Shown here: piece by piece, positions 15,501-19,475 of the stretch
Position numbering within the stretch: position 1 is the stretch's first letter
Layout of the letters: each line of letters begins with the position of its first letter
Origin: a virus
Lineage: Duplodnaviria; Heunggongvirae; Uroviricota; Caudoviricetes
IMG/VR virus record: IMGVR_UViG_2850808358_000003
Strand: one strand, 5' to 3'
DNA: 27,982 nt
Program-made: the position numbers and the translations under genes
The notes under the pieces: model-generated
The model's database searches: none
What the model was told of the DNA's origin: nothing
What the model saw: only the letters and a program-made list of their open reading frames with translations

Positions 15501-18038
15501 ATGGGTAAAGGCAGCAGTAAGGGGCATACCCCGCGCGAAGCGAAGGACAACCTGAAATCCACGCAGTTGCTGAGTGTGATTGATGCCATCAGTGAAGGGC
15601 CGGTTGAAGGTCCGGTGGATGGATTAAAAAGCGTGCTGCTGAACAGTACGCCGGTGCTGGACACTGAGGGGAATACCAACATCTCCGGTGTCACGGTGGT
15701 GTTCCGGGCAGGTGAGCAGGAGCAGACTCCGCTGGAGGGATTTGAATCCTCCGGCTCCGAGACGGTGCTGGGTACGGAAGTGAAATATGACACGCCGATC
15801 ACCCGGACCATCACGTCTGCAAATATCGACCGTCTGCGCCTGACCTTCGGTGTGCAGGCACTGGTGGAAACCACCTCAAAGGGGGACAGGAGTCCGTCGG
15901 AAGTCCGCCTGCTGGTTCAGATACAACGTAACGGTGGCTGGGTGACGGAAAAAGACATCACCATTAAAGGCAAAACCACCTCACAGTATCTGGCCTCGGT
16001 GGTGGTGGGTAACCTGCCGCCGCGCCCGTTCAATATCCGGATGCGCAGGATGACGCCGGACAGCACCACAGACCAGCTGCAGAACAAAACGCTCTGGTCG
16101 TCATACACCGAAATCATCGATGTGAAACAGTGCTACCCGAACACGGCACTGGTCGGCGTACAGGTGGATTCGGAGCAGTTCGGCAGCCAGCAGGTGAGCC
16201 GTAATTATCATCTTCGCGGGCGCATTCTGCAGGTGCCGTCGAACTATAACCCGCAGACGCGACAATACAGCGGTATCTGGGACGGAACGTTAAAACCGGC
16301 ATACAGCAACAACATGGCCTGGTGTCTGTGGGATATGCTGACCCATCCGCGCTACGGCATGGGGAAACGTCTTGGTGCGGCGGATGTGGATAAATGGGCG
16401 CTGTATGTCATCGGCCAGAATTGCGACCAGTCAGTGCCGGATGGCTTTGGTGGCACGGAACCGCGTATCACCTGTAATGCGTACCTGACCACGCAGCGCA
16501 AGGCGTGGGATGTGCTCAGTGATTTTTGCTCGGCGATGCGCTGTATGCCGGTATGGAACGGACAGATGCTGACGTTCGTGCAGGACCGACCGTCGGATAA
16601 GGTGTGGACCTATAACCGCAGTAATGTGGTGATGCCGGATGATGGCGCGCCGTTCCGCTACAGCTTCAGCGCCCTGAAGGACCGCCATAATGTCGTTGAG
16701 GTGAACTGGATTGATCCGGACAACGGTCATGAGACGGCGACAGAGCTTGTGGAGGACACGCAGGCCATTCTCCGTTACGGTCGTAACGTCACGAAGATGG
16801 ATGCCTTTGGCTGTACCAGCCGGGGACAGGCACACCGCGCCGGGCTGTGGCTGATTAAAACGGAACTGCTGGAAACGCAGACCGTGGACTTCAGCGTGGG
16901 CGCAGAAGGGCTTCGCCATGTACCGGGTGATGTCATTGAAATCTGCGATGATGATTATGCCGGTATCAGCACCGGTGGTCGCGTACTGGCGGTGAACAGC
17001 CAGACCCGGACGCTGACGCTCGACCGTGAAATCACGCTGCCGTCCTCCGGTACCACGCTGATAAGCCTGGTTGACGGAAGTGGCAATCCGGTCAGCGTGG
17101 AGGTTCAGTCCGTCACCGACGGCGTGAAGGTAAAAGTGAGCCGTGTTCCTGACGGCGTTGCCGGATACAGCGTATGGGGGCTGAAGTTGCCGACGTTGCG
17201 CCAGCGCCTGTTCCGCTGTGTGAGTATCCGTGAGAACGATGACGGCACGTATGCCATCACTGCCGTGCAGCATGTACCGGAAAAAGAAGCCATCGTGGAT
17301 AACGGGGCGCACTTTGACGGCGACCAGAGCGGCACGGTGAATGGTGTCACGCCGCCAGCGGTGCAGCACCTGACTGCCGAAGTCACCGCAGACAGCGGGG
17401 AGTATCAGGTACTGGCCCGCTGGGACACGCCGAAGGTGGTGAAGGGCGTGAGTTTCCTGCTTCGCCTGACCGTGGCAGCGGATGACGGCAGTGAGCGGCT
17501 GGTCAGCACGGCCCGGACGGCGGAAACCACATACCGCTTCACGCAACTGGCGCTGGGGAACTACAGGCTGACAGTCCGGGCGGTAAATGCGTGGGGACAG
17601 CAGGGCGATCCGGCATCGGTATCGTTCCGGATTGCCGCACCGGCAGCGCCGTCTCGGATTGAGCTGACGCCGGGCTATTTTCAGATAACCGCCACGCCGC
17701 ATCTTGCGGTTTATGATCCGACGGTACAGTTTGAGTTCTGGTTCTCGGAAAAGCGGATTGCGGATATCAGGCAGGTTGAAACCACAGCCCGCTATCTTGG
17801 TACGGCGCTGTACTGGATAGCCGCCAGTATCAATATCAAACCGGGCCATGATTATTACTTTTATATCCGCAGTGTGAACACCGTTGGCAAATCGGCATTC
17901 GTGGAGGCCGTCGGTCGGGCGAGCGATGATGCGGAAGGTTACCTGGATTTTTTCAAAGGCAAGATAACCGAATCCCATCTCGGCAAGGAGCTGCTGGAAA
18001 AAGTCGAGCTGACGGAGGATAACGCCAGCAGACTGGAG
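15501..18038 (+). pseudogene. J: lambda J central tail fibre / host specificity protein, 5' portion (846 codons) interrupted by IS4
   Basis: [34 protein letters not shown]... matches lambda gpJ through ...TEDNASRLE; stop codon supplied by first bases of IS4. Confidence 0.9.
18026..18038. repeat. 13-bp target-site duplication CAGCAGACTGGAG (left copy)
   Basis: Identical 13-mer at 19463..19475 flanking the other IS4 end. Confidence 0.9.
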
Positions 18039-19462
18039 TAATGCCGATCAGTTAAGGATCAGTTGACCGATCCAGTGGCTGTGTAAGAATCCGGAAACGC
18101 TCACTTGTTTCCGGATTTTTTTATGCACATTGGACAGGCTCTTGATCTGGTATCCCGTTACGATTCTCTGCGTAACCCACTGACTTCTCTGGGGGATTAC
18201 CTCGACCCCGAACTCATCTCTCGTTGCCTTGCCGAATCAGGTACTGTAACGCTACGCAAGCGCCGTCTTCCCTCGAAATGATGGTCTGGTGTATTGTTGG
18301 CATGGCGCTTGAGCGTAAAGAACCTCTTCACCAGATTGTGAATCGCCTGGACATCATGCTGCCGGGCAATCGCCCCTTCGTTGCCCCCAGTGCCGTTATT
18401 CAGGCCCGCCAGCGCCTGGGAAGTGAGGCTGTCCGCCGCGTGTTCACGAAAACAGCTCAGCTCTGGCATAACGCCACGCCGCATCCGCACTGGTGCGGCC
18501 TGACCCTGCTGGCCATCGATGGTGTGTTCTGGCGCACACCGGATACACCAGAGAACGTGCAGCCTTCCCCCGCCAGACACATGCCGGGAACCCGGCGCTC
18601 TACCCGCAGGTCAAAATGGTCTGCCAGATGGAACTGACCAGCCATCTGCTGACGGCTGCAGCCTTCGGCACGATGAAGAACAGCGAAAATGAGCTTGCTG
18701 AGCAACTTATAGAACAAACCGGCGATAACACTCTGACGTTAATGGATAAAGGTTATTACTCACTGGGACTGTTAAATGCCTGGAGCCTGGCGGGAGAACA
18801 CCGCCACTGGATGATACCTCTCAGAAAGGGAGCGCAATATGAAGAGCTCAGAAAACTGGGTAAAGGCGATCATCTGGTGAAGCTGAAAACCAGCCCGCAG
18901 GCACGAAAAAAGTGGCCGGGACTGGGAAATGAAGTGACAGCCCGCCTGCTGACCGTGACGCGCAAAGGAAAAGTCTGCCATCTGCTGACGTCGATGACGG
19001 ACGCCATGCGCTTCCCCGGAGGAGAAATGGCGGATCTGTACAGTCATCGCTGGGAAATCGAACTGGGATACAGGGAGATAAAACAGACGATGCAACTGAG
19101 CAGGCTGACGCTGAGAAGTAAAAAGCCGGAGCTTGTGGAGCAAGAGCTGTGGGGTGTCTTACTGGCTTATAATCTGGTGAGATATCAGATGATTAAAATG
19201 GCGGAACATCTGAAAGGTTACTGGCCGAATCAACTGAGTTTCTCAGAATCATGCGGAATGGTGATGAGAATGCTGATGACATTGCAGGGCGCTTCACCGG
19301 GACGTATACCGGAGCTGATGCGCGATCTTGCAAGTATGGGACAACTTGTGAAATTACCGACGAGAAGGGAAAGGGCCTTCCCGAGAGTGGTAAAGGAGAG
19401 GCCCTGGAAATACCCCACAGCCCCGAAAAAGAGCCAGTCAGTTGCTTAACTGACTGGCATTA
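18039..19462 (+). mobile_element. IS4 insertion sequence (1424 bp, 2 bp short of the 1426 bp I recall for IS4)
   Basis: Terminal inverted repeats TAATGCCGATCAGTTAAGG / revcomp TAATGCCAGTCAGTTAAG; encodes IS4 transposase; flanked by 13-bp direct repeats. Confidence 0.9.
18123..19449 (+). pseudogene. insG: IS4 transposase with two 1-nt deletions (three frames)
   Basis: MHIGQALDLVSRYDSL... from ATG 18123 stops after ~57 codons; continues in ORF 18224..18637 and then ORF 18493..19449; shifts near 18276 and 18552. Confidence 0.85.
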
Positions 19463-19475
19463 CAGCAGACTGGAG
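19463..19475. repeat. 13-bp target-site duplication CAGCAGACTGGAG (right copy)
   Basis: See left copy. Confidence 0.9.

Follow-up and report, generated by a model that had tools for sequence, protein, structure and literature searches.

An IS4 copy very probably transposed into J, the tail-tip and host-specificity gene of a lambda-like prophage, and decayed there. The locus lies within a stretch of viral DNA of 27,982 nucleotides (IMG/VR record IMGVR_UViG_2850808358_000003), referred to here as the window. In the course of events that we propose, insertion would have followed the cut-and-paste route expected of the IS4 family, with the staggered cut in the target marked by a 13-bp duplication. 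J now stops after codon 846, where the end of the IS provides a TAA, and 286 C-terminal codons are detached which, from what is known of lambda J, should include the receptor-binding end. Decay came after insertion: a C was lost at codons 50/51 of the transposase gene and a synonymous G>T change acquired, both also present in a sister lineage, and an A in codon 146 would have been lost later, in the window assembly only. The first catalytic Asp is now cut off from the other two catalytic residues (the second Asp and the Glu) and from the YREK motif, with the ends of the element intact. Judged by what is known of the IS4 family, such a copy should be unable to move by its own transposase and would at most be moved in trans. 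The features on which this reconstruction draws are collected in Table 1.

Table 1. Coordinates of the features of the J::IS4 locus in the window.
Feature	Position	Strand	Description
J 5' part	15501..18041	+	lambda-type tail-tip gene; 846 codons, end ...NASRLE
Left target-site duplication	18026..18038	+	13 bp, CAGCAGACTGGAG
IS4 copy	18039..19462	+	1424 bp; same orientation as J; 99.8% identity with 1426-bp IS4 copies
IRL	18039..18056	+	TAATGCCGATCAGTTAAG; same sequence as in intact copies
Transposase fragment 1	18123..18281	+	InsG codons 1-50, three out-of-frame codons, stop; Pfam Nterm_IS4
First frameshift	18270..18272	+	CCC vs CCCC in intact IS4; IS4 position 232, codons 50/51
Transposase fragment 2	18278..18637	+	119-aa ORF; codons ~52-145, then out of frame; Pfam Nterm_IS4
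Synonymous G>T	18457	+	GCG to GCT, Ala; also in contig L054
Second frameshift	18557..18558	+	A missing, GAACG^TGC; IS4 position 521, codon 146
Transposase fragment 3	18616..19449	+	277 aa from first ATG; Pfam DDE_Tnp_1
IS4-to-J ORF	19251..20336	+	361 aa; start 212 nt inside IS4, off the transposase frame; in frame with J 3' part
IRR	19445..19462	+	CTTAACTGACTGGCATTA; same sequence as in intact copies
Right target-site duplication	19463..19475	+	13 bp, CAGCAGACTGGAG
J 3' part	19476..20336	+	286 codons plus stop; tail-tip/receptor-binding end

The duplication is readily recognised. The 13-mer CAGCAGACTGGAG occurs twice in the whole window, at 18026-18038 and 19463-19475, as perfect copies, and its length falls within the 11-13 bp range of IS4; the other IS4 copies that we collected carry duplications of 11, 12 or 13 bp. 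A chance repeat was considered and rejected (0.03 matches expected with one mismatch tolerated). On the left, the stop codon of the J 5' part (TAA, 18039-18041) consists of the first three bases of IS4. This 5' part matches positions 1-839 of the NF049904 lambda_TipJ profile (1849.3 bits), and the DNA of the region is 92% identical to lambda 14818-18042. The 3' part covers profile positions 873-1163 (484.7 bits) and contains the Pfam domains Phage_Tail_Tip and Ig_GpJ_C. When IS4 and one repeat are removed, joining 15501..18038 to 19476..20336, a single ORF of 1132 codons results, whose product equals lambda J, the central tail fibre or host-specificity protein, in length (1132 aa; NP_040600) and is 89.7% identical to it. 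Over positions 1-1163 of the NF049904 profile, the joined protein reaches 2329.8 bits (cut-off 1950). Since neither piece alone reaches that cut-off, J as encoded is a pseudogene. The preliminary description had reported a perfect 13-bp duplication around a 1424-bp element with IS4 terminal repeats, a cut after codon 846 and a J frame restored upon excision, all of which we recovered.

Over the full query, the element is 99.6-99.8% identical to the copies listed from complete E. coli genomes, where the reference elements are annotated as "IS4-like element IS4 family transposase". At least 80% of the query is matched in 2480 complete E. coli genomes, and all listed copies measure 1426 bp. Compared with an intact IS4 (the O121 copy), we count three differences in all, namely two 1-nt deletions and one SNP. 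The 18-bp terminal inverted repeats, TAATGCCGATCAGTTAAG and TAATGCCAGTCAGTTAAG, are imperfect, agreeing at 16/18 positions and beginning with TAATGCC, and the ends in the window conform to the signature of the IS4 subgroup, -AATR--------WTW (PMC2266710). In this subgroup the transposase is encoded by a single ORF, the duplications span 10-13 bp, and specificity for the arms of the target is pronounced (PMC2266710).

Instead of a single uninterrupted DDE transposase ORF (about 442 aa, with YREK), the element contains its coding sequence in three frames, owing to the C deletion at codons 50/51 and the A deletion in codon 146. Fragment 2 bears the first catalytic Asp (LLAIDG), while the second Asp (LMDKGY), the Glu and the YREK motif reside in fragment 3. 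At the second site, the intact form GAACGATGC is replaced by the deletion form GAACGTGC at 18557. The repaired transposase equals the annotated 442-aa core and reaches 303.8 bits with the NF033592 profile for IS4 family transposases (cut-off 115). With the coding sequence present and homologous, yet spread over three frames, the element is best regarded as a defective copy of IS4 rather than a different element. The two 1-nt deletions noted earlier are present in the sequence, and they account for the 2-bp shortfall (1424 vs 1426 bp in intact copies), but their positions had to be corrected: the shortened CCC run lies at 18270-18272, not 18276, and the missing A at 18557/18558, not 18552. The synonymous G>T at 18457 was absent from that earlier list. 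The copy had also been called probably immobile; this holds insofar as it has no transposase of its own, but "immobile" is too strong, both ends being as in intact copies. We therefore prefer to describe this IS4 copy as apparently non-autonomous; transposase made by another copy might still act on it.

The trust to be placed in the two frameshifts can be judged from L054, a related, independently assembled contig whose flank is 99.6% identical to that of the window (4 mismatches per kb). L054 shares with the window the insertion, the loss of the C and the G>T SNP, but it retains the A. Because the first frameshift is common to this independent, non-identical contig, it appears to be real and not an error of the window assembly. 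It sits in a homopolymer, a place where long-read assemblies err. The A deletion is absent from L054 and from every other J::IS4 copy, and the second frameshift would be either recent or an assembly error. The latter reading, in which at least the A missing at 18557/18558 was lost in assembly, would leave an element with one frameshift or, in the extreme, with both lesions spurious, an intact and active copy; we consider it unlikely, while granting it a real chance. It would fit with the retained A of L054, and also with the rarity of the exact 119-aa product, which needs both frameshifts and, out of about 15 billion proteins, turned up in a single assembly. Moreover, the IS4 of FDAARGOS_536 differs from that of two sister strains, otherwise identical at the locus, by loss of a single C in a C5 run, a loss that recurs in contig L056; such homopolymer indels do arise in assemblies and can be artefacts or recurrent mutations. 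However, the missing A lies outside a homopolymer (GAACGATGC), and the adjoining 7.6 kb, when aligned to lambda, show a single 1-nt indel, which argues that the assembly is not riddled with such errors. The extreme version must also contend with the first frameshift in L054, and were only the second lesion an error, the transposase would still be broken at codons 50/51.

Could the split transposase nevertheless be functional, either by programmed ribosomal frameshifting of the kind found in IS1 and IS3 family elements or by complementation between fragments? We regard this as extremely improbable. No observation favoured it; the idea comes from comparison with the IS3 family, of which the window holds IS600 copies. 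Against it, IS4 family transposases are encoded by a single ORF (PMC2266710), which is uninterrupted in thousands of IS4 copies; both lesions are deletions relative to the consensus; two successive +1 corrections would be required across three frames; and the first catalytic Asp lies in a different frame from the other two DDE residues. Programmed frameshifting was rejected on the grounds that the family is single-ORF and that the lesions are deletions when compared with those thousands of intact copies.

The position of the insertion turned out not to be peculiar to the window. IS4 occupies the identical J position, with a 13-bp duplication, in four complete E. coli genomes and five contigs from the viral collection, and the same 13-bp target has been taken independently in at least five other lineages or J alleles, once in the opposite orientation. 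The IS4 target consensus is AAA-N20-TTT. In the preferred site that we derived from 43 loci, the core of 11-13 bp is rich in G+C (roughly CNGC...GNNG); an A-tract precedes it by ~3 nt, and a T-tract follows ~3 nt after it. The target in the window reads ggATAAcgc|CAGCAGACTGGAG|gagTTTTcg. We built a weight matrix from unrelated IS4 insertions, using 51 half-sites from E. coli, Shigella, Kosakonia, Scandinavium and others. Under this matrix the J site ranks first of 79,503 candidates in the window and likewise first in the entire 48.5-kb lambda genome, where the identical target of 13 bp, together with its arms, is found at 18030-18042. This matrix is crude, true insertion sites scoring 1 to 25 in leave-one-out scoring, and in 15 of 300 random 26.5-kb sequences some site reaches the score of the J site. 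Given its repeated occupancy in other lineages and its top rank under a matrix from unrelated sites, J appears to contain an IS4 hot spot. The term is meant as site-specific, not frequent: only 4 complete E. coli genomes have the site occupied, and about 2600 genomes have an empty copy. No J/IS4 junction was found in a metagenome scan.

A different account of these loci would be one ancient insertion that spread with the prophage and was ancestral to them all, with no hot spot involved. Shared orientation in 9/10 J::IS4 loci fits such an account, as does the clear common descent of some of them (the window with L054; L053 with L055; L002 with L050 and L051). Yet the loci divide between two variants of the duplication, CAGCAGACTGGAG and CAGCAAACTGGAG, and its two copies match in every complete locus; this pairing of G or A in both copies is not what one event followed by point mutation would leave. 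In addition, J flanks differ by ~3-15% between event groups, compared with at most 1% for the IS4 copies; IS4 is inverted at the same 13 bp of J in L056; and the site has the top score under a target matrix trained on unrelated sites. A single ancestral insertion, which we consider very unlikely, was rejected on the matched duplication variants, the flank versus IS divergence and the inverted copy. It is tempting to go further than a hot spot and to view lambda-family J as a conserved, nucleotide-precise IS4 target, the best match in the whole phage genome, with six or more separate hits that include both orientations. IS4 would then inactivate the tails of lambdoid prophages recurrently and site-specifically; this broader proposal we hold to be improbable.

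The insertion also creates an ORF that starts within IS4 and reads in frame into the J 3' part, as the preliminary description had pointed out. The same 361-aa ORF is present in 5/5 complete same-orientation loci checked, for it follows automatically from the sequence of the IS4 right end and the phase of insertion. A scan of the region for promoters and terminators gave counts no higher than in shuffled sequence, which lends no support to expression of this ORF. We can only speculate that it might express a free receptor-binding fragment that alters host susceptibility to related phages.

Beyond J, the prophage has suffered other losses. Its alignment with lambda begins inside B, adjoining a truncated IS600, and the portal gene is truncated. 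Further downstream, the alignment jumps from lambda 10789 to 14818, with a 7-nt overlap at window positions 14838-14844 (H-to-I deletion). Around J, a lambda-type tail-gene neighbourhood was confirmed, with I upstream and lom, stf and tfa downstream. With its truncated portal gene and the H-to-I deletion, the prophage is dead, and the J insertion is one lesion among several. Its capsid protein has identical counterparts labelled Shigella boydii, and the host is IS-rich and Shigella-like.

Taken as a whole, the locus is ordinary genome decay: a defective known IS in a pseudogene of a dead prophage. For annotation, J is better treated as one interrupted gene than as two, and the IS4 copy as a pseudogene; use of the second frameshift as a marker should await a check against reads. 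One small point is new: the 13-bp site in lambda-type J is a recurrent, nucleotide-precise IS4 target. This precision makes target recognition by IS4 easily testable on a well-known substrate, and the recurrent J site could serve as a lineage marker.

Compared with lambda itself, the prophage retains the gene order V-G-T-H'...'I-J-lom-stf-tfa; it differs by the interruption of J after codon 846 and by the absence of Nu1, A, W, the 5' end of B, most of H, all of M, L and K, and part of I. Its insertion element likewise has a well-known counterpart in the IS4 of Escherichia coli (insG; IS4 subgroup, IS4 family), which it resembles in nucleotide sequence (99.8% identity over the full length), in its 18-bp imperfect terminal repeats, in a target duplication inside the 11-13 bp range, in the type of target, with A-rich and T-rich arms flanking a G+C-rich core, and in a transposase that becomes identical once the two bases are put back. 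In contrast to that IS4, it measures 1424 rather than 1426 bp, and two breaks, at codons 50/51 and 146, interrupt its transposase gene.

Close parallels to the locus are the RefSeq E. coli loci of FDAARGOS_536, 21AR0173, AREA_492 and RM10740, in which IS4 lies at the same J nucleotide, with a 13-bp duplication and in the same orientation. These are already annotated as "host specificity protein J, incomplete", IS4 transposase and "phage tail tip protein, incomplete". They differ from the window in having other J alleles (flanks 85-95% identical), the duplication CAGCAAACTGGAG and IS4 haplotypes unlike that of the window, with the transposase intact in 3/4. They represent events independent of the one in the window.

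After codon 846 of the lambda-type tail-tip gene J, the reading frame (ORF 15501..18041, C-terminus NASRLE) ends in a TAA stop that is also the opening of an insertion sequence. Within the 27,982-bp window there are exactly two copies of the 13-mer CAGCAGACTGGAG, against a chance expectation of 0.03 matches with one mismatch tolerated, and the 1424 bp between them start with TAATGCCGATCAGTTAAG and end in the reverse complement of TAATGCCAGTCAGTTAAG, the terminal repeats matching each other at 16 of 18 positions. Over its full length, the element is 99.6-99.8% identical to copies annotated as 'IS4-like element IS4 family transposase'. 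The two exact 13-mers and this identity bear out the preliminary description, which had proposed IS4 in J with a perfect 13-bp duplication. In 2480 of 5426 complete E. coli genomes, a copy spans at least 80% of the element; the full copies among the matches listed are all 1426 bp long.

Excision of IS4 and one repeat had also been claimed to restore J. Indeed, joining 15501..18038 to 19476..20336 yields an uninterrupted 1132-codon ORF whose product equals lambda J in length, with 89.7% identity, and scores 2329.8 bits against the NCBIfam model NF049904 lambda_TipJ (cut-off, 1950), which neither the 5′ nor the 3′ piece passes alone.

Coordinates of features in the window
Feature	Coordinates	Details
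Complete IS600 and adjoining short ORF	~285-1550 (- strand) and 1-327	
Antiterminator Q, short RusA fragment (90 aa), DUF968 gene	2414-4669	- strand
Truncated IS600-type element abutting the prophage inside B	6454-~7210	region 6454-7301 and 7211 onward
Target duplication, left and right copy	18026-18038 and 19463-19475	
IS4	18039..19462	
Hairpin just 5′ of the transposase start	18085-18120	stem, then T-run; inside IS4 end
Transposase frame 1	18123..18281	codons 1-50
C deletion, CCCC to CCC	18270-18272	alignment to intact IS4
Transposase frame 2	18278..18637	codons ~52-145; first catalytic Asp in LLAIDG
Synonymous G>T	18457	alignment to intact IS4
A deletion (GAACG^TGC)	between 18557 and 18558	alignment to intact IS4
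Transposase frame 3	18616..19449	second Asp in LMDKGY, Glu, YREK motif
Hairpin, perfect 11-bp palindrome	19433-19458	overlaps right terminal repeat
Side tail-fibre gene	21067-24234	

IS4 occupies the same J position, with a duplication of 13 bp, in the complete E. coli genomes FDAARGOS_536, 21AR0173, AREA_492, and RM10740 and likewise in five contigs of the viral collection. Grouped by flank and IS4 haplotype, these J::IS4 loci represent at least six events. Two have the duplication CAGCAGACTGGAG and IS4 in the orientation of J, namely, the window with the related contig L054, and the locus pair L053 and L055. The duplication CAGCAAACTGGAG accompanies the same orientation in three more: L002 (FDAARGOS_536) with L050 and L051; L003; and L057, where only the left copy is seen since the contig ends 89 nt into IS4. 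In the sixth, L056, CAGCAAACTGGAG flanks an IS4 lying opposite to J. Because the duplication copies match within every complete locus (both G or both A), because J flanks from different events share 85-97% identity against 99% or more for their IS4 copies, and because one of the six is inverted, these insertions show themselves to be independent. The J site is thus a recurrent IS4 target.

What marks this site was examined with 51 distinct 22-nt half-sites beside IS4 ends, all J loci left out; 43 loci with IS4 ends (L007-L049) had been collected from species-representative genomes of E. coli, Shigella flexneri, Kosakonia, Scandinavium, Buttiauxella, and others. From -20 to -16 the half-sites show an A-tract; they are rich in C at -14/-13 and again at -10/-9, with G at -4, -3, and -1. 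Many real sites resemble terminator palindromes, as in AAAAAAGGG/CTGCCGACCGGTG/GCCCTTTTTT. Papers from the 1980s reportedly give AAA-N20-TTT as the target consensus. With a two-sided score of 20.6, the J site with its 13-bp duplication ranks first among 79,503 candidates in the window after IS4 excision and also leads the entire 48.5-kb lambda genome (runners-up, 20.1 and 19.7), where target and arms are identical at 18030-18042; a score as high appeared in 15 of 300 random window-length sequences, and real IS4 sites scored 1 to 25 in leave-one-out tests. Among complete E. coli genomes the site is empty in ~2600 and occupied in 4, and thus insertion is site-specific rather than frequent. Many exact IS4 left ends were seen in the draft genome of Kosakonia oryziphila REICA_142 and in a Scandinavium MAG, so the expansion of IS4 reaches beyond Escherichia and Shigella. 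A 265-bp Methylobacterium contig with an E. coli K-12-type IS4 flank looks like contamination.

Aligned to an intact E. coli O121 copy (L001) and other copies, the window IS4 shows three private differences: two 1-nt deletions and a synonymous change. Both deletions had been correctly recognized in the preliminary description, albeit at positions (18276 and 18552) each about 5 bases off. With the two bases put back, the frame encodes 442 aa that are identical to the core of the transposase as annotated (303.8 bits against NF033592, IS4 family transposase; cut-off, 115). No difference from intact copies occurs in the opening 230 or the final ~900 bases, which include both terminal repeats. With intact ends and a transposase gene in three frames, the copy is therefore non-autonomous and may be immobile, a narrower reading than the probable immobility in the preliminary description. 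Every IS4 copy compared has the hairpins within the two ends; these structures may stop transcription from reading through.

Are these frameshifts real? The window comes from the 5.13-Mb chromosome CP026877.1 (NCBI assembly GCA_002950035.1), and both the 119-aa product requiring the two frameshifts and the 846-aa J stump are confined to this assembly among ~15 billion proteins. Scanning the viral-contig collection for the J/IS4 junction recovered L054 (IMGVR_UViG_2896595138_000007), whose J flank is 99.6% identical to the window; a rate of 4 mismatches per kb makes it a different strain. Its IS4 agrees with that of the window through base 975, apart from having the A at IS4 position 521. The C deletion and G>T are therefore common to both and are real and inherited, while the A deletion, private to GCA_002950035.1 in this comparison, is either recent or an assembly error. 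Independent corroboration extends to the first frameshift only. Caution over the window frameshifts also comes from FDAARGOS_536, which differs from two sister strains at the J::IS4 locus solely by loss of a C in a C5 run (IS4 position 531); the same loss recurs in the unrelated locus L056, which is due either to a hot spot of mutation or to a sequencing artefact that recurs. The single 1-nt indel in the 7.6 kb of window aligned to lambda, and the location of the missing A outside any homopolymer, argue against a generally error-ridden assembly.

As previously noted from the sequence, an ORF (19251..20336, 361 aa) runs from IS4 in frame into the 3′ part of J. It starts 212 nt inside the element, out of the transposase frame, and, since IS end and insertion phase do not vary, recurs in each of the five complete same-orientation loci checked. 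A promoter scan upstream of it found nothing beyond chance, and the gene caller used for the public record places the gene start at 19521, not 19251. We treat this ORF as a mechanical by-product.

The prophage is heavily damaged elsewhere, too. Its identity to lambda is ~96% from inside B to H and 92% from I to J. The alignment starts at lambda 3154, inside portal gene B; the prophage lacks Nu1, A, W, and the 5′ end of B, and the abutting IS600-type element has a complete orfA and an orfB cut at 169 aa. A jump from lambda 10789 (H) to 14818 (I), with a 7-nt overlap at window 14838-14844, marks a ~4-kb deletion by which the 3′ part of I now follows the 5′ end of tape-measure gene H; M, L, and K are gone entirely, as are most of H and part of I. 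Tail chaperone gene G, called as 39- and 81-aa pieces, has one nucleotide inserted near 13866 when compared with lambda, which could be a further pseudogene lesion or an assembly indel. Upstream lie toxin-antitoxin genes, a complete IS600 (orfA, 100 aa; orfB, 272 aa; 99% identity to annotated copies), beside which a short ORF weakly matches the phage baseplate hub gpD family, and the Q/RusA/DUF968 genes, which look like a lambdoid late-regulatory remnant whose orientation is opposite to that of the head and tail genes. For the capsid protein, identical sequences carry the NCBI label Shigella boydii. Clustered at 90% among ~15 billion proteins, the side tail-fibre protein (1055 aa, with phage_tail_N and Collar domains) stands alone, an allele unique to GCA_002950035.1. 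The J insertion is therefore one of several lesions; the prophage is dead, and the genome that carries it is IS-rich.

Neither the element nor this type of event is new, and RefSeq already annotates equivalent loci. The IS4 subgroup is characterized by single-ORF transposases, 10-13 bp duplications, and marked target-arm specificity (PMC2266710).
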